Of a DNA stretch of 64,000 nt, positions 5,948-12,288 are shown piece by piece. Origin of the DNA: a bacterium. GTDB taxonomy: Bacteria; Patescibacteriota; Patescibacteriia; UBA10025. How positions within the stretch are numbered: the stretch's first letter is position 1; every line of letters begins with the position of its first letter. The DNA is taken from the NCBI GenBank assembly GCA_021815445.1, contig JAKAGM010000001.1, forward strand, positions 787,710 through 851,709, written 5' to 3'. A program made the position numbers and the translations under genes. The notes beneath the pieces are model-generated. The model was given only the letters and a program-made list of their open reading frames with translations, was not told the origin of the DNA and did no database searches.

Positions 5948-6565
5948 TCATTCTTCGAGTTTCTTTTGGTCAGGATCATCGATCCGTATCAGACATCGGA
6001 GGCTGGCAGCATTCTGCCTTGCAGCTTCGGTCGATGTGCTAATGTCCTCCAGGAGTCCAGACCATTCATACCCATGAATGGCAAAGCATGCCAGTACTAG
6101 ACGATGCCATGAGTCATCAAGAACAATGTGCTGCGCAATGAACCCATAGATCAGCCGCGTGTTACGACACCATGCGTACGTGTCGCTCTGGCGAAGTCTT
6201 TCCCCATAATGGGTCCAGACCCTGTGAAAGAACGCCGCGACGGCAGCTTTGATGCGCTGATCCTCAATGCCCCAAAGGCTACCGATGGTCTTCTTAAAGT
6301 TGACGTCCGCCTGGCCTGACTCATCGATGACCCGTTGAATTCGAAGAAAAAGTAGCAGTTCGTCCTTCGTACAGGTGGCGGGAAGACCACGATCATCACG
6401 CGTATTGTCATCAAGCCAGCGCGTTATCGCGTCAAGCACTTCATTACTGTAGTGTCCCGAATCATCTGCGGACACCTTTCCTTTTTTATCCTGAGATCGC
6501 GGCATACTGTCTCCTTTTGGTTTATTGTGAGAGTACATCCTTTTGCTGAACGAATAAGCATACAC
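5948..6565 (-). CDS. Hypothetical protein
   Basis: 205-aa ORF with no recognisable motif. A lysine-rich N-terminus follows the M at 6505, so the start is uncertain. Confidence 0.4.
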   Translation of the reverse strand: MYAYSFSKRMYSHNKPKGDSMPRSQDKKGKVSADDSGHYSNEVLDAITRWLDDNTRDDRGLPATCTKDELLLFLRIQRVIDESGQADVNFKKTIGSLWGIEDQRIKAAVAAFFHRVWTHYGERLRQSDTYAWCRNTRLIYGFIAQHIVLDDSWHRLVLACFAIHGYEWSGLLEDISTSTEAARQNAASLRCLIRIDDPDQKKLEE

Positions 6566-6664
6566 CTATAAGAAATATTGTCAATATTATTAACATAAAG
6601 TTATTTAAAATATTGCCTATTATTAAAAATTATTTGAAACATAGGTAGAATGTTGTCATTATTA

Positions 6665-6693
6665 TTGACAAGAATGTCCACATCTGCTATTAT
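6665..6693 (+). promoter_or_regulatory. Sigma70-like promoter for the TrmB-led operon
   Basis: TTGACA, a 17-nt spacer, then TATTAT. This places the TSS about 10 nt before the ATG at 6714, i.e. a near-leaderless transcript. Confidence 0.45.
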
Positions 6694-6713
6694 AGGCCCG
6701 AGATGCGGCACAT

Positions 6714-7466
6714 ATGATACTTGACCAATCTTTACAGGAATTCGGCCTAACTGAAAAAGAGGCTAAAGTGTATCTTGCCGTCTTGGAGTTGGGCCAGGAT
6801 GCTGTGTTAGGTATCGCGAAAAAATCTGAATTAAAACGACCTACAGTCTATCTTATTCTGGAGTCGTTGATTAAACGCGGACTCGTACGAAAAATACCAA
6901 AAGGAACAACAACATTCTACGTGACAGAAGACCCGGATATATTGCTCCAAGTTCTTGAAAAGCGTCAAAAGTCAATCAAGGATGTCATCCCTTTCCTTAA
7001 GGCCATATATAATAGGCGTGATACAAAACCTCAAATACGCTTTTACGAGGGCCGGGAAGGAATTCAAAAAGCATATGGAGAATTTCGTCTGGCTAAAAAA
7101 AATATCCTTTTTTACGGCTCAATCAAGGATATTCTGGAGAGCTTTCCCGACGAAATGTTAACATATGAAATAATAAAGAAAATGGGCATTTCAGTAAAAG
7201 AAATCATGTCGTCGGACCCCGTTGATATAAAATATGCGAAAGAGATCATGGGATATAAAAATCCCAAACACGAAGTTCGAATACTGAAAAAGGGAACCAT
7301 CTTTGCTATAGATACGGCAATTATTGATGATAATAAAATCGCCATAGTATCTTTGAAGGGTAACGCTTTTAGTGTCATGATTCAAAGTAAGGATATCGCC
7401 CAATCGTTTAAAACACTTTATGAGCTTGCTTGGGCGAGCGCGATAAAAGTAACAGACATTGTATGA
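6714..7466 (+). CDS. TrmB-family (sugar-specific) transcriptional regulator
   Basis: N-terminal wHTH LTEKEAKVYLAVLELGQDAVLGIAKKSELKRPTVYLILESLIKRGLV, plus a C-terminal TrmB-like effector domain. Confidence 0.7.
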   Translation: MILDQSLQEFGLTEKEAKVYLAVLELGQDAVLGIAKKSELKRPTVYLILESLIKRGLVRKIPKGTTTFYVTEDPDILLQVLEKRQKSIKDVIPFLKAIYNRRDTKPQIRFYEGREGIQKAYGEFRLAKKNILFYGSIKDILESFPDEMLTYEIIKKMGISVKEIMSSDPVDIKYAKEIMGYKNPKHEVRILKKGTIFAIDTAIIDDNKIAIVSLKGNAFSVMIQSKDIAQSFKTLYELAWASAIKVTDIV

Positions 7467-7954
7467 ACCCCCTCTCGCCGCGAAAAACGACGATGACGCT
7501 CTGTCTTATCGTCCAAAACGGCAATGTGCTGCTCGGGATGAAAAAACGGGGATTCGGGGCCGGATGGTGGAATGGGTTTGGAGGTAAGGTACATGAAGGT
7601 GAGGATCTGGAAAATGCTGTTCAGAGGGAACTCCATGAGGAAGCGGGAATACGCGCAGTGAGCCCAAAAAAACAGGCTATCTTAACGTTTGAGTTTAAGA
7701 ACAGCCCGCAGTTTTTTGAAGGGCATGTTTTCTTCGCTGATGCATTCACCGGTGAGCCAAGGGAGACCGAAGAAATGAAACCCCAGTGGTTTTCAATTAC
7801 TACTATGCCTTACGGCATAATGTGGCCCGGCGACAGATATTGGATGCCGAGTTTCTTTGCAGGTCGTCGCTTCCGGGCATATCTTCTTTTTGATGGGAAT
7901 AAACATTTACTCAGCCACGAACTGAATGAAGTACCGCAACATGAAGTGCTATGA
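7463..7954 (+). CDS. NUDIX hydrolase
   Basis: Nudix box GGKVHEGEDLENAVQRELHEEAGI. The ATG overlaps the TrmB stop (ATGA), indicating translational coupling. Confidence 0.8.
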   Translation: MNPLSPRKTTMTLCLIVQNGNVLLGMKKRGFGAGWWNGFGGKVHEGEDLENAVQRELHEEAGIRAVSPKKQAILTFEFKNSPQFFEGHVFFADAFTGEPRETEEMKPQWFSITTMPYGIMWPGDRYWMPSFFAGRRFRAYLLFDGNKHLLSHELNEVPQHEVL

Positions 7955-8580
7955 AACTTGTTTTCGCAACACATAATCACGGGAAAATTCGGGAGATGGC
8001 GTCAATCCTTGCTGATCTCGCAATTGACGTTGTTTCCGCAGACGAGGCGGGTGTGACAAAAGATGTGGAAGAAGACGGTAGCACTTTGGAAGAAAACGCG
8101 CTCAAAAAAGCAAAATACGTAGCCCACGAAACTCATGAGTGGGTCATTGCAGACGACACCGGCCTTTTTATCGACGCGCTCGGCGGTGCTCCGGGTATCC
8201 ACTCGAATCGGTGGGCGGGTGAACAGGTGAAGGGGAATAAATTGGCTGAATACACTCTCCAGCAAATGCTCAAGATTCCTGCTGATAAGCGTTCGGGCAA
8301 TTTTACCAGCGTCGTAGTGGTGGTCGCGCCGGGCGGAAAACATTGGACATTTCAAGGAAAGCTCAAGGGGACTATTGCCCCGTCGCCTCGCGGCACCCCG
8401 CGTCCGCTGCTACCGTATGATACAATCTTCATTCCCGAAGGGGAACGTCGGACCTTCGCTGAGATGAGCGAATCAGAAAAAAACGCAATCAGCCATCGGG
8501 GCCGCGCTTTCGAAGGAATAAAGAAATTTCTTGAGGAGCGGTTAAAGGTGGATAATAAAGATTATGAAGTACCGAGATAA
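7951..8580 (+). CDS. rdgB: Non-canonical purine NTP pyrophosphatase (RdgB/Ham1 family, dITP/XTP pyrophosphatase)
   Basis: FATHNHGKIRE, ADDTGLFIDALGGAPGIHSNRW and FIPEGERRTFAEMSESEKNAISHRGRAF. The ATG overlaps the Nudix stop. Confidence 0.85.
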   Translation: MKLVFATHNHGKIREMASILADLAIDVVSADEAGVTKDVEEDGSTLEENALKKAKYVAHETHEWVIADDTGLFIDALGGAPGIHSNRWAGEQVKGNKLAEYTLQQMLKIPADKRSGNFTSVVVVVAPGGKHWTFQGKLKGTIAPSPRGTPRPLLPYDTIFIPEGERRTFAEMSESEKNAISHRGRAFEGIKKFLEERLKVDNKDYEVPR

Positions 8581-9547
8581 CGTCTACGGAACAATACCTA
8601 TTTCAGAACCGGTCGCTATTAATATTATCAATAGCCCGGCAATGCAGCGATTGAAAGGCATCGACCAAGGGGCGTACAGAAAACCTTTTTTTCCGGGCAC
8701 CCCGACGAACCGTTTTGACCATTCTGTCGGAGTATTTCTTCTTTTGCGGATATTCAAGGCACCGCTTCTGGAACAGATTGCGGGCTTGATCCACGATGTG
8801 TCCCATTCAGCGTTCTCACATGGCATTGAATATATCCTCAAACAAGGCAATGCGAAAACCCAGGGGCACCAGGACAATATTCACAATGACTTCGTGAAAA
8901 ATTCGGAAATCACCGGCATACTTTCGAGGTATGGCATGAATGTCGATGACATACTCGATGACTCGCGCTTCCCTTTGAAAGAAAATGATCTGCCCGATAT
9001 ATGCGCAGATAGGATCGACTATACTCTGCGCGACGGGGTTTCATATGGCGAACTAACTATTAGAGAAGCGAAAGAAATCTTAAGTTCGCTTTCGACGGTG
9101 AACGGCAGGTGGATATTTGCCGACTTTGCTCATGCGCGGAATTTTGCGCAATTTTATAATAAGCTGAACGGAGACTATTGGGCAGGCATAGAATCGGCTG
9201 TCATGTTTCATACCGTAGGCGAGTACATTGCCCATGCGTTACAAAAGCACTATATTGAACTTGAAGATTTGTATACGACTGACCAGGAAGTGTTTAATAA
9301 AATCGAACCTCATCTTAAAAATGATGAGTGCGCGCAATTGTTGCATGATCGCATGAATCACCATATAAACTTTATAAACTCTCCCGGACACTTTGACACG
9401 CGTGTCATCATTAAATCCAGAGCTATTGATCCGCTCTGCTGCCATGACGGGGCCGTGAAGCGCGTATCCGAGATTGACCCGTACTGGACTCAGACTGTTC
9501 AGGAGGAATCAAAGCCGAAAGAATATTTCATCAAATTTGAACAATAG
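8564..9547 (+). CDS. HD-domain phosphohydrolase of the dGTPase/SAMHD1-like dNTP triphosphohydrolase family
   Basis: N-terminus YGTIPISEPVAINIINSPAMQRLKGIDQ...NRFDHSVGV, HD motif LIHDVSHSAFSH, and DRIDYTLRD. It overlaps rdgB by 17 nt. Confidence 0.65.
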   Translation: MKYRDNVYGTIPISEPVAINIINSPAMQRLKGIDQGAYRKPFFPGTPTNRFDHSVGVFLLLRIFKAPLLEQIAGLIHDVSHSAFSHGIEYILKQGNAKTQGHQDNIHNDFVKNSEITGILSRYGMNVDDILDDSRFPLKENDLPDICADRIDYTLRDGVSYGELTIREAKEILSSLSTVNGRWIFADFAHARNFAQFYNKLNGDYWAGIESAVMFHTVGEYIAHALQKHYIELEDLYTTDQEVFNKIEPHLKNDECAQLLHDRMNHHINFINSPGHFDTRVIIKSRAIDPLCCHDGAVKRVSEIDPYWTQTVQEESKPKEYFIKFEQ

Positions 9548-9568
9548 GCTAAGAACAATGCAGAACAC

Positions 9569-10408
9569 ATGACGCATCCGGTCATCCAACACATTCTTGC
9601 ACGGCGCGGAAAGCATGTTCCGCAAAATGACGGCCGAACCATCGGCTTGGTTGCCTACGGCGGGTCGATGTCGGGGGTAATCGGCGGAGGCGCGATGATA
9701 GCACTGGAAGAACTCGGCTTGAGTCACGCATTTGACCATATCATATGCAACTCTGCGGGTTTCGCGAACGCTTCCTATCTTCTCGCGGACTCCACTCATA
9801 TTGGCGCCACCATTTACTTCGAAGAGTGCGCGAGCCGCAAATTTATTAATTTTTTCCGTTTTTGGAACATCGTTGATATCGATTTTCTAATTGACGTCAT
9901 GCGCACAAAAAAAATATTGCACGTTGACCGCATTGCATCGTCTGAAACCAAACTTTATGTCGAGTTACATTCCACTCGGACGCATAAAGAGCAATATCTC
10001 GAAGTACACACCATTCCTCCCGACCACTATTTCGAGATTATGCACGCGGCAACTGCCATCCACTATTTGCACCCCGGCGGCAGTTTCATTAACGGTATCC
10101 CGTACATGGATATCCGGCCGTACACACGTTCCAAACACATCCAACAGGCCCAGGCGCTTGGCTGTACGGATATTCTGGTCATCTACAACCGGATCGACCA
10201 ACAAGGACGAGACGTATCCCCTTCCGAACAGATTGTCGAGGTGCTTCCGGACAAAGATTGGCAGGTAAAGCCGTATGAGCAAAACCCCGAGATCCTGCGT
10301 GCCGGATACCGCAACATGGGCCGGCGGATTAAACAAATTTTTGGAGTTGATGGAGGAATATCGTTTAATATGTTCACGGAAAACGACATAGTCGATGTCC
10401 AGGTTTAA
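9569..10408 (+). CDS. Patatin-like phospholipase family protein (putative)
   Basis: Glycine-rich AYGGSMSGVIGGGAM oxyanion-hole-like region and an x-S-x-G nucleophile elbow (CNSAG). The catalytic Asp could not be located with confidence. Confidence 0.45.
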   Translation: MTHPVIQHILARRGKHVPQNDGRTIGLVAYGGSMSGVIGGGAMIALEELGLSHAFDHIICNSAGFANASYLLADSTHIGATIYFEECASRKFINFFRFWNIVDIDFLIDVMRTKKILHVDRIASSETKLYVELHSTRTHKEQYLEVHTIPPDHYFEIMHAATAIHYLHPGGSFINGIPYMDIRPYTRSKHIQQAQALGCTDILVIYNRIDQQGRDVSPSEQIVEVLPDKDWQVKPYEQNPEILRAGYRNMGRRIKQIFGVDGGISFNMFTENDIVDVQV

Positions 10409-10442
10409 ATATTTGCGTGAAAAGTAATCCTATGGTCCAACT

Positions 10443-11237
10443 ATGAAGTTCCCTCGTCCAATTCGCACACTACGAAACAATGTATCGCCAGAAACTATTG
10501 CAAGTCAATTTCTCTTTCACGAATTCCTAAAAATCTTTCGCGACATCAGGGATCCACTCTTTCGACAGAGAATAAAAAGATCAATCTATCGGTTTAAAAA
10601 ACGCGACGGAGAACGCCACTACTGGCAGTTGGTAGCGGCAATTGCAGAGGGGTTGCGCGTCAAATGGGTGTATCGGTTACTTACCGATACGAGCTATAAA
10701 TGGAATCTCGAGGTGAGTGCGATAAAAAACCTCACAATGACTGGTTTTAGCCCGCTGGCAGTTGATAAAATTATACACCGATGCGGCCGTGATTTTTACC
10801 GATTCGCAGACTACTACCGCGCACATCTTCACTTCTTTAAAAAGTACATGCCGAACTTACAGCCGCGCCCCGAACGCGACATGCACCCCGTTTTCGTATT
10901 TTGGGATTCAGGGCAGAGACGACTGCGACTCTTTGACGGCATGCGACGCACAACGCTTGCCGCAATACACGGCAAAAAAACTATTAAGGCATTCGTCGGC
11001 TATCCCGTTAGAAAAGGCAAGTCCATGGTTAATGACGACAAGATTCACTTTTTCAAACTTTTATACAGAAATTCTTCAAAAGATGCCGCCACATTCAGGG
11101 CATTCACACGCGTGGGTAAAGAGATTGTAAAACAATCCCGCAACAGCGTAGAAGTGTTTACAACGACACTTAAGCCTTGGTCGGATATCCATGAAAAAAA
11201 ACTCACAAAGGCAATTATCGACAAAAGGGGGAGATAA
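10443..11237 (+). CDS. Hypothetical protein with a C-terminal ParB/Srx-like (DGxxR) motif
   Basis: 264 aa, basic. LRLFDGMRRTTLAAIHGKKTIKAFVGYP resembles the ParB N-terminal or DGQHR-type motif. Confidence 0.4.
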   Translation: MKFPRPIRTLRNNVSPETIASQFLFHEFLKIFRDIRDPLFRQRIKRSIYRFKKRDGERHYWQLVAAIAEGLRVKWVYRLLTDTSYKWNLEVSAIKNLTMTGFSPLAVDKIIHRCGRDFYRFADYYRAHLHFFKKYMPNLQPRPERDMHPVFVFWDSGQRRLRLFDGMRRTTLAAIHGKKTIKAFVGYPVRKGKSMVNDDKIHFFKLLYRNSSKDAATFRAFTRVGKEIVKQSRNSVEVFTTTLKPWSDIHEKKLTKAIIDKRGR

Positions 11238-11553
11238 TTTTTACCATCGCATTTACGGAATGGTAAAAGTAATTCCACCGGGTAAAGTCGCTACCTACGG
11301 TCAGATCGCCGCGCTTGCCGGATCTCCCCGCGGCGCCCGGATGGTGGGATGGGCGCTCCATGTACTCAGTGATGAACAACTCGTACATACTCCCTGGCAC
11401 CGCGTTATTAACCGCGAGGGACGGATTAGCACAACCTGTTTCGAACACACCTGCGACGAGCAAGCATTGCTTCTTAAAAAAGAGGGTGTTATAGTACGAA
11501 AAAGCAAAGGTAACTACTGGATTGACTTAAAACAGTTTCAGTGGAAAGTGTAG
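11191..11553 (+). CDS. Alkyltransferase-like protein (ATL; MGMT/Ogt DNA-binding domain with Trp replacing the active-site Cys)
   Basis: VATYGQIAALAGSPRGARMVGWALH...PWHRVINREG. PWHRV replaces the PCHRV motif of O6-alkylguanine-DNA alkyltransferases. The start is uncertain and could be the downstream MVKV. Confidence 0.7.
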   Translation: MKKNSQRQLSTKGGDNFYHRIYGMVKVIPPGKVATYGQIAALAGSPRGARMVGWALHVLSDEQLVHTPWHRVINREGRISTTCFEHTCDEQALLLKKEGVIVRKSKGNYWIDLKQFQWKV

Positions 11554-11567
11554 ATATAAGAATGCGG

Positions 11568-11638
11568 GCGGGTATCGTATAATGGTAATACCACAGCTTT
11601 CCAAGCTGTTGCCGGGGGTTCGATTCCCCCTACCCGCT
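11568..11638 (+). tRNA. tRNA-Gly(UCC), no encoded CCA
   Basis: Cloverleaf: acceptor GCGGGTA/TACCCGC, D-stem GTAT/ATAC, anticodon stem ACAGC/GCTGT with loop TTTCCAA, T-arm GGGGG-TTCGATT-CCCCC. Confidence 0.85.
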
Positions 11639-11792
11639 AATCAGCCTTACCAATAACTTTATAATATTCCCTGCCCACAGATCCCTTCAGACCAAGATGT
11701 TGGGGAAATCGAAGGACAGAAGTGAGCAAGGAATGAAATGACGAAGCGAACGTCGGCGGGGTGCCGGTGGCACGCCGCCGCTGTCCAGGACC

Positions 11793-11810
11793 CGATTCCC
11801 CCTACCCGCT
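11793..11810 (+). repeat. Direct repeat of the tRNA-Gly(UCC) 3' end (18 nt, cgattccccctacccgct)
   Basis: Exact copy of tRNA nt 11621..11638, about 170 nt downstream. A third partial copy (ccctacccgct) is at 12053..12063. Confidence 0.6.
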
Positions 11811-12233
11811 TTGTGGATCCAAATAATTCTACTGTTTCTTTAGTTGCGAGAGTACTAGCCGAAGATAGAGAATCGAAGGGGTGCGAACGGGGCAGAGCGA
11901 CTCAACTGCTTGAGTCGCGGCCGTGAGCACGGGTCGATCATGTTCTGAAGGAACGCGAGACCCAGGGAGAGTATGCATATACCACGCTGCCCAGGAAACG
12001 ATTCTTGAGTTCGATAAAATCTAACGGAACGAGACCCCGTTGAATAGCGGGACCCTACCCGCTCAGCGAATTTGCTCGCTGAGCGAGGCTCGCTACAAGC
12101 GTTAATTAATTCTACTCTCTTGAATATGTGCCCGAAAGAAATGGCATCTGTTTTGTTGGTATTTGGTTAAGTTTGAAATACATCCTTCGACTGACAATTT
12201 ATTAAATTTATCTGAATTATTTGTGAATATTAA

Positions 12234-12262
12234 TTGACAAAAAGCTGTTTTTTTGCTATACT
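12234..12262 (+). promoter_or_regulatory. Consensus sigma70 promoter of paralog A
   Basis: TTGACA, a 17-nt spacer, then TATACT. It is followed by a 26-nt A/T-rich leader with no SD. Confidence 0.6.
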
Positions 12263-12288
12263 GCATACATAATAAATAAATAAAAACT

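Follow-up and report, generated by a model that had tools for sequence, protein, structure and literature searches.

We analysed a cluster of seven genes (g1 to g7) in a 64,000-nucleotide stretch of DNA, hereafter the window, from a bacterium of the Patescibacteriota lineage UBA10025 (assembly GCA_021815445.1, contig JAKAGM010000001.1, positions 787,710 to 851,709). The cluster comprises seven plus-strand open reading frames (ORFs) spanning 6714-11553, where a previous annotation made from the letters alone (the sequence-only reading) had located them. It encodes a TrmB-family regulator, a Nudix hydrolase, an RdgB/Ham1 pyrophosphatase, a compact HD-domain protein, a patatin-like hydrolase, a ParB/Srx-fold protein and an alkyltransferase-like protein (ATL) (Table 1). 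All seven of these family assignments, first offered as guesses, were confirmed or supported by Pfam, NCBIfam and PDB matches and, for g5 and g6, by homologues, profiles and folds; the two latter genes required profiles and structure prediction because direct sequence searches came back empty. The g1/g2 and g2/g3 junctions are ATGA overlaps, g3 and g4 overlap by 17 nt, gaps of 21 nt and 34 nt separate g4 from g5 and g5 from g6, and g6 overlaps g7 by 47 nt. The earlier description of the junctions as "ATGA overlaps or gaps under 35 nt" was therefore correct in spirit, though not to the letter. A tRNA-Gly(TCC) gene starts 13 nt past the g7 stop codon.

Table 1. Genes and sequence features of the cluster and its borders (positions are those of the window).
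Feature	Position	Strand	Evidence or remark
Second operator-like copy, AATATTGTCAATATTATTAACA, over the divergent promoter of the 205-aa ORF	6574-6595	n/a	22 nt, 86% identical
Perfect palindrome TTGTCA-N7-TGACAA over the -35 box; candidate operator for the TrmB-type g1	6653-6671	n/a	
Sigma-70-like promoter TTGACA-17-TATTAT, extended -10 TG	6665-6693	+	11/12 positions match
g1, TrmB-family winged-helix regulator, 250 aa	6714-7466	+	Pfam TrmB 6.6e-18
g2, MTH1/NUDT1-type Nudix hydrolase (predicted)	7463-7954	+	Pfam NUDIX 1.6e-15
g3, RdgB/Ham1 non-canonical purine NTP pyrophosphatase (ITP/XTP/dITP)	7951-8580	+	Pfam Ham1p_like 2.1e-58
g4, compact HD-domain protein, 327 aa, SAMHD1/EF1143 fold	8564-9547	+	Pfam HD 2.8e-6
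g5, divergent patatin-like acyl hydrolase	9569-10408	+	Homologues, family profile, Ser-Asp dyad
g6, uncharacterised, 264 aa, ParB/Srx fold in the central domain	10443-11237	+	AlphaFold2 model, profile, motif
g7, ATL, 120 aa, single domain	11191-11553	+	DNA_binding_1 (PF01035) 5.6e-23
tRNA-Gly(TCC), conserved syntenic anchor 3' of ATL/g6 in relatives	11567-11639	+	
att-like scar, exact repeat of the last 18 nt of tRNA-Gly	11793-11810	+	
Second scar, exact repeat of the last 11 nt of tRNA-Gly	12053-12063	+	

The single consensus promoter that had been proposed at the head of the cluster is present and is among the two best sites in 6.6 kb. A palindrome overlaps its -35 box. The second, operator-like copy likewise lies over a -35 box, that of the divergent promoter in front of a 205-aa ORF on the minus strand (5948-6565). 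The two copies look like an operator pair for the g1 product, and the 205-aa ORF may be co-regulated with the cluster because its promoter holds one of them. This ORF gave no Pfam, NCBIfam, PADLOC or PHROG match and had no homologue in any of the relatives' loci retrieved. Within the cluster, a search for internal promoters and terminators returned only weak 9/12 promoter matches and one terminator-like hairpin inside g4; these counts were near shuffle expectation and were left uninterpreted. An Rfam scan over 5.5-12.5 kb detected the tRNA only, with no riboswitch or leader. The GC content of the cluster (0.43-0.49) lies inside the range of the window, and homologues of the cluster proteins carry the name "Patescibacteria group bacterium" in the source databases. 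Gene order, tight coupling, the promoter, the family or fold of all seven products and a partial conservation of the neighbourhood form the basis of the interpretation developed here. We infer from them that the genes are co-transcribed under the candidate operator, and the substrates named below are likewise those predicted for each protein.

The first four products comprise the regulator and three predicted nucleotide enzymes. The g1 protein scored 23-40 bits against the NCBIfam TrmB/TrmBL equivalogs, for which the cut-offs are 500-650, and its C-terminal region matched no characterised sugar-sensing TrmB among these equivalogs. Its assignment to the TrmB family is accordingly made at the domain level only, and it is not an orthologue of the characterised sugar-sensing TrmB proteins. 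The g2 protein, for which an alternative ATG start exists at 7493, aligned end-to-end with vertebrate MTH1 (zebrafish, dog and human) at 2e-44 and 154 bits, and matched bacterial MutT-type proteins at ~1e-10 and at most 43 bits. It appears to be specifically of the MTH1/NUDT1 type, the diphosphatases of oxidised or methylated purine dNTPs (deoxynucleoside triphosphates). Its identity to the human MTH1 sequence is ~44%. Base recognition in MTH1 involves Asn33, Trp117, Asp119 and Asp120; in this human MTH1 numbering, g2 keeps Asn33, Phe72/74, Trp117, Asp120 and Trp123, that is, most residues of the pocket. As judged from sequence, it differs from MTH1/NUDT1 in belonging to a bacterium of the candidate phyla radiation (CPR) and in one specificity position, Asp119, which is Gly in the window (MWPGD) and Asp in the relatives L050 and L041 (MWPDD). 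MTH1-like Nudix copies were found in these two relatives (L050:6929-7402 and L041:3643-4209) in addition to the window. O6-methyl-dGTP is hydrolysed by MTH1-type enzymes, unlike E. coli MutT (PMC6237811). This substrate class is the pool counterpart of the lesion recognised by ATL, which provides a possible biochemical thread between g2 and g7.

The g3 protein exceeded the curated equivalog cut-off of TIGR00042 (174 bits versus 145.35). For g4, the metal ligands H53, H77-D78 and D149/D152 are invariant among homologues, and the structural model (pLDDT, predicted local distance difference test, 90) best matched E. faecalis EF1143 with dGTP/dTTP (4lrl; 1.2e-12, TMq 0.77), followed by SAMHD1, with a fold match covering the whole chain. 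Its homologues form ~2000 clusters; in the best 120 of these, lengths range from 324 to 351 aa, with almost all at 325-327, and every named member is from Patescibacteria or an unclassified metagenome-assembled genome. The g4 protein thus shares its whole-protein fold and the H...HD...D metal ligands with the EF1143/SAMHD1 dNTP triphosphohydrolases, but it has 327 aa where these have 450-626 aa, and much of the regulatory/oligomerisation region is gone. It gave no match to the PADLOC defence dGTPase models.

At the other end of the cluster, PF01035 covers residues 16-100 of g7, and the N-terminal domain of the O6-alkylguanine-DNA alkyltransferase (AGT) is absent. ATLs are defined by a motif in which the Cys of PCHRV is replaced, usually by Trp, while the Tyr and the Arg finger are kept (PMC10779285). 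In g7, the motif reads PWHRV with Trp69 replacing the AGT cysteine, and Tyr36 (base-flipping) and Arg50 (Arg finger) align with Tyr25 and Arg39 of Atl1. The best PDB matches were S. pombe Atl1 (3.9e-19) and the V. parahaemolyticus ATL (1.8e-13). By domain make-up and motif, g7 is therefore assigned as an ATL, sharing its single domain, PWHRV motif, Tyr and Arg finger with S. pombe Atl1, E. coli YbaZ/eATL and the V. parahaemolyticus ATL. It differs from these known ATLs in its context, as it overlaps a ParB/Srx-fold gene by 47 nt and follows genes for nucleotide-pool sanitation. ATL recruits UvrA/UvrC to O6-alkylguanine (PMC10779285). In a limited check of the literature, we found no ParB/Srx-fold partner in that review and no description of this cluster in work on ATL gene neighbourhoods.

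The gene overlapping that of the ATL, g6, matched no Pfam, NCBIfam or PDB entry by sequence. At 50% identity its family amounts to 165 clusters, and almost all of these are ~260 aa long. In the AlphaFold2 model (pLDDT 91.5), the core of the central domain is beta-beta-DGxRR-helix-beta, and all of the top ~30 Foldseek matches fall in the ParB/Srx superfamily (pNOB8 ParB-N, PadC, ParB, Noc, sulfiredoxin and SbnI), the matches themselves being weak (best E 1.1e-3, probability 0.96). A family profile matched H. pylori ParB at E 0.0043, with FDGMRRxxLAA aligned to the GERRxRA box. All of 46 diverse members share D165 and G166, and at least 90% of them R169; among close relatives LFDGMRRTxLAA does not vary. 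PF02195 (ParB_N) was detected in 0 of 25 family members even at E <=10, and one distant relative scored 0.014 against it. By the predicted fold and the DGxxR / GxxRxxA motif, g6 can be placed in the ParB/Srx superfamily, alongside ParB N-domain CTPases, sulfiredoxin, SbnI/SerK kinases and ParB-like nucleases. It differs from ParB in having Met in place of the ParB Glu and in its unique N-terminal (invariant E27, W61 and W87) and C-terminal helical regions, and from the superfamily as a whole in that a C39-like peptidase is fused to it or precedes it in some relatives. Such a Peptidase_C39-like (papain-fold) domain lies directly upstream of g6 in L009 (fused ORF, 8645-10081), L010 (9514-9981) and L020 (786-1358), and is also fused to g6 in protein P0016. 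A homologue of the peptidase was sought in the window and not found.

To place these proteins in their genomic context, we surveyed ~40 distinct g6 loci obtained from genome and metagenome scans and direct look-ups, searching each with all seven proteins by tblastn. For the metagenome scan an intermediate alignment (A4) was used, the broad alignment (A3) being too divergent. Among the seven products, only ATL co-occurs with g6 across these loci, save for one g2-like Nudix in L041. The close g6 clade (>=56% identity) comprises 13 distinct loci, the window included; an ATL-family gene adjoins g6 in nine of them and a canonical ATL in seven, in three configurations. The order g6 then canonical ATL was found in six loci (the window, L008, L009, L010, L015 and L020), the reverse order with overlapping genes in L002, and a divergent 158-aa ATL-like gene abutting g6 upstream in L005 and L017. 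In a neighbour-joining tree of the clade, the three configurations are scattered, and losses seem to have occurred in L004/L021, L007 and L018. The ParB/Srx fold with its DGxRR motif, the ATL neighbours in three configurations and the peptidase fusions together suggest that g6 is a DNA-associated, nucleotide-binding partner of ATL.

Two observations were made on these ATL and g6 genes. In L009, L010 and L020, the ATL comes after the C39-like peptidase and g6. The divergent 158-aa ATL/MGMT-like protein (L005:7523-7999 and L017:5508-5984) reads TPYWRTL where g7 has TPWHRVI, matched g7 at 5e-6 by BLASTP, and scored 4.8e-4 for DNA_binding_1, below the Pfam threshold; its family may represent an unrecognised ATL subfamily.

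For g5, there was no Pfam match at E <=0.01 and no direct NCBIfam or PDB sequence match. Homologues at 31-51% identity carry PF01734, and the family profile matched PlpD (2.4e-6), VipD and ExoU across the oxyanion loop and nucleophile elbow. In the family alignment, Ser62 never varies and Asp181 hardly does. The profile match and the Ser-Asp dyad link g5 to the patatin-like phospholipases PlpD, VipD, ExoU and CapV, from which it differs by the length of its family (~270 aa), by degenerate motifs and by giving no PADLOC effector match. In its elbow (C-N-S-A-G) the first Gly of GxSxG is lost, and in its oxyanion loop (GGSMSG) the Arg of GGxRG. A literature search on patatin in Patescibacteria found no description of this cluster.

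A second survey, based on g5, covered eight contexts, the window included. In L050 (g5 identity 58%), the order is DUF5654-Nudix(63%)-Ham1(65%)-patatin(58%)-HD(60%)-DUF1653-ATL(64%). In L051 (51%), it is Ham1-patatin-ATL, then TrmB and tRNA-Gly(TCC), and in L052 (49%) Ham1-unknown-patatin-ATL-HTH-tRNA-Gly(TCC); a check of whether the unknown L052 gene (332 aa) might be an HD homologue showed that it is not. All junctions in these three loci are overlaps or gaps of at most 17 nt. A sub-module of the form (Nudix)-Ham1-(HD)-patatin-ATL thus recurs in three other genomes, and the genes are not scattered through relatives without co-occurrence, which was the outcome that the sequence-only reading had named as evidence for an incidental fusion. 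The conservation it had asked about therefore holds for two sub-modules and not for the complete seven-gene set. The remaining contexts are different: in L053, L055 and L056 (47-48%), the g5 homologue stands beside PlsC-like, Aas-like, ACPS, CdsA/CarS-like and other patatin or alpha/beta-hydrolase genes, the Aas-like gene being an AMP-binding/PP-binding/acyltransferase fusion, and in L054 (40%) it stands alone beside LepA. CPR bacteria have no lipid biosynthesis, and it has been proposed that they draw lipids and lysolipids from other cells (PMC7242380). Because of these lipid-gene contexts and the proposed lipid dependence, g5 is most likely an acyl hydrolase that acts on (lyso)phospholipids in lipid scavenging, and we regard it as a passenger in the cluster without a mechanistic tie to nucleotides. 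Separately, the gene groups of L053, L055 and L056 look like an operon with which CPR bacteria might scavenge or remodel lipids.

Taken together, these findings indicate that conservation does not extend to the seven genes as a unit, and that TrmB and g6 are lineage-specific additions to a Ham1...ATL core. Of the loci seen, only the window unites all the conserved pieces and carries a TrmB-type regulator at its head. We favour, with somewhat more confidence than doubt, the reading that it is a vertically inherited chromosomal cluster of Patescibacteria (CPR) that co-expresses "house-cleaning" functions for genome integrity from one strong promoter. Under this reading, the TrmB-type g1 would bind the palindrome over the -35 box and autoregulate the cluster, and would probably also regulate the divergent 205-aa gene. 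The MTH1-type g2 would hydrolyse oxidised or O6-methylated purine dNTPs, g3 would hydrolyse (d)ITP and XTP, and the compact SAMHD1/EF1143-type g4 would hydrolyse or balance dNTPs. O6-alkylguanine still reaching DNA would be bound by the ATL g7, which would pass the lesion to excision repair, with g6 as a lineage-specific ATL partner, most likely a nucleotide-binding DNA-associated protein. The patatin-like g5 would act on (lyso)phospholipids in lipid scavenging and be carried along in the block. A rationale for such an arrangement may be that these organisms presumably depend on scavenged nucleotides. The combination of pool sanitation with an alkylation sensor had been suggested before our analysis; it gained from the MTH1-type affinity of g2 and the recurring Ham1...ATL blocks, and lost in so far as the seven genes do not form one unit and the patatin family is linked to lipid genes.

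Several observations weigh against this interpretation. Tight same-strand packing is usual in this genome: in a rough ORF call, the median same-strand gap was 74 nt, 44% of gaps were <=35 nt, and other same-strand runs contained 9 and 11 ORFs. Because dense packing is so common, six tight junctions in a row, taken alone, are only moderately unusual. The full seven-gene set was found in none of the relatives' loci; TrmB is absent from L050 and L052, and HD from L051 and L052. In other loci, none of g1-g5 was detected beside g6 except in L041, which has a g2-like Nudix 1.8 kb before it, and in the distant g6 clade (33-42% identity, ~28 loci) the neighbourhood is a WecG-type glycosyltransferase, g6, GltX and an M23 peptidase, with no ATL. 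The Ham1...ATL block occurs in only three independent relatives at 49-65% identity and could reflect residual synteny instead of selection for co-expression. The substrate range of g2 may also differ from that of MTH1 because of the Gly at its Asp119 specificity position.

On the strength of such observations, the cluster might be an incidental array of unrelated co-directional housekeeping genes, in which the likeness of L050-L052 and the g6-ATL pairing are leftover synteny around tRNA-Gly. In addition to the dense packing and the company of WecG and GltX in the distant g6 clade, the variation in gene content between the flanking markers from genome to genome and the patatin-like homologues found beside lipid genes elsewhere fit this explanation. 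It accounts less well for the thematic coherence of the cluster, four of whose seven products act, by family, on damaged nucleotides or DNA. It also leaves aside that the Ham1...ATL block outlasts local rearrangement, such as the exchanged order of patatin and HD in L050 and the insertion of DUF1653 or an unknown gene, and that an ATL-family neighbour of g6 is kept in three configurations, including the reversed order and another ATL subfamily. We consider an incidental array unlikely, though a serious competitor. A nutritional role is a further alternative, in which the enzymes would all support a host-dependent CPR cell that lives by uptake: the HD, Nudix and Ham1 enzymes would handle imported nucleotides and the patatin-like protein imported lipids, with co-regulation by the TrmB-type protein. 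TrmB proteins are a nutrient-sensing regulator family in archaea, and one not only heads the cluster but another lies near the L051 cluster. The proposed uptake of lipids and lysolipids from neighbouring cells by CPR bacteria (PMC7242380), the ties of the patatin-like family to Aas-like, PlsC and ACPS genes, and a Ham1-patatin adjacency kept in four genomes agree with a scavenging operon. Yet the cluster has no transporter gene, a role in nutrition sits badly with ATL and g6, the conservation of the block does not extend to TrmB, and the C-terminal region of g1 resembles no characterised sugar-sensing TrmB, so that we judge this explanation improbable.

The sequence-only reading had also raised the possibility of an anti-phage island at the tRNA gene. 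In such an island, the HD protein would deplete dNTPs, the patatin-like protein would act as an abortive-infection effector and the ParB-like protein as a nuclease. dNTPases, patatin-like lipases and ParB-like nucleases are all found in known defence systems, a tRNA gene adjoins the cluster with copies of its end nearby, and g2 matched the PADLOC candidate PDC-S07 at 8.8e-12. This match reached only 42.8 bits, compared with 154 bits to MTH1; otherwise, PADLOC returned wHTH matches for g1 and nothing for g3-g7, so that the defence scan detected generic domains and no system-like arrangement, and a known anti-phage system was rejected. PHROGs gave only generic Nudix, HD and MGMT domain matches to the cluster, and the viral-contig scan found no g6 relatives. 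The att-like repeats noted earlier are real, the 18-nt sequence occurring twice and the 11-nt sequence three times (0.03 expected by chance), but they do not bracket the operon, because all copies lie downstream of the tRNA, across ~425 nt of non-coding DNA. They are likely scars of past integration and excision events that did not involve the cluster. No integrase or mobility gene was found within 10 kb, and the tRNA-Gly(TCC) follows ATL or g6 in eight relatives' loci, so that its adjacency, formerly taken as a sign of an island, represents conserved synteny; on these grounds a tRNA-integrated island was rejected as well. Together with the GC content of the cluster, the wide distribution of the g4 family in Patescibacteria, with a near-constant length among the homologues examined above, and the lipid-gene context of patatin homologues, these results largely refute the defence-island reading already, and we regard it as scarcely credible.

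Returning to the house-cleaning cluster, we consider it mainly a lineage-specific arrangement of known housekeeping families and mostly ordinary, and the functional coupling proposed for it draws on gene context in a few genomes. If the coupling is real, the locus shows ultra-small scavenging bacteria bundling protection against damaged nucleotides (oxidised, deaminated and alkylated) with a DNA-lesion sensor. It would also provide, in g6, a concrete candidate partner for ATL, whose hand-over of lesions to repair is only partly understood. A bolder and rather doubtful proposal is that g6 defines an undescribed ATL-associated module in Patescibacteria, as a DNA-bound, nucleotide-dependent clamp, kinase or nickase that would process ATL-marked O6-alkylguanine or resolve the very stable ATL-DNA complexes, and that with the MTH1-type g2 the locus would be a two-tier system acting against O6-alkylguanine on pool and DNA. 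Such a g6-ATL module would offer an auxiliary or alternative route to the UvrABC hand-off in reduced genomes. Three "hypothetical" protein families of Patescibacteria gain a likely role from this analysis: the g6 family, which has no Pfam model; the compact SAMHD1-like HD family, widespread in the group; and the divergent patatin-like family, tied to lipid-remodelling genes. The defence island is removed as a false lead. Follow-up is most worthwhile for the association of g6 with ATL, with or without the C39 peptidase, and for the presence of an MTH1-type Nudix in one cluster with an ATL.

Further minor observations concern the neighbours of these genes in relatives. Nudix genes occur now and then near distant g6 genes (L032, L049 and L041). 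In L041 (3233-6768), the distant g6 is preceded by genes for a Nudix protein, a second Nudix of MTH1-like type (56% identity to g2), a CYTH-domain protein and YceG, a further loose association of g6 with nucleotide-phosphate hydrolases. The closeness of g2 to eukaryotic MTH1 may reflect inter-domain transfer or ancient shared ancestry. A 125-aa neighbour family (e.g. L002:8801-9178) was considered as MazG-like; it gave only insignificant YabN/HisI matches (~0.03), and the assignment is not claimed.

Finally, the surroundings of the tRNA gene show signs of repeated small insertions. In L010 (11119-11873), an inserted GT2 glycosyltransferase gene on the minus strand parts ATL from tRNA-Gly, and after it comes a duplicate of part of the ATL C-terminus (49% identity, 35 aa) that resembles an insertion scar. 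Because of small insertions at this spot in relatives, such as this one, the tRNA is a hotspot of insertion beside a stable backbone. Ten tRNA genes lie across the window (Ile-GAT, Val-GAC, Phe, Pro ... Gly-TCC ... Cys, Gly-GCC, Leu-TAA), and their set and order are partly common to L008-L010, which suggests that the region is a conserved tRNA-rich backbone. The 650-nt non-coding stretch that follows the tRNA-Gly (11640-12288), in which Rfam detected no known RNA, carries what look like the scars of small integrated elements: besides the two copies of the tRNA end, it contains a 13-nt repeat (11821, 12104) and a 15-nt inverted repeat (11684, 11937).

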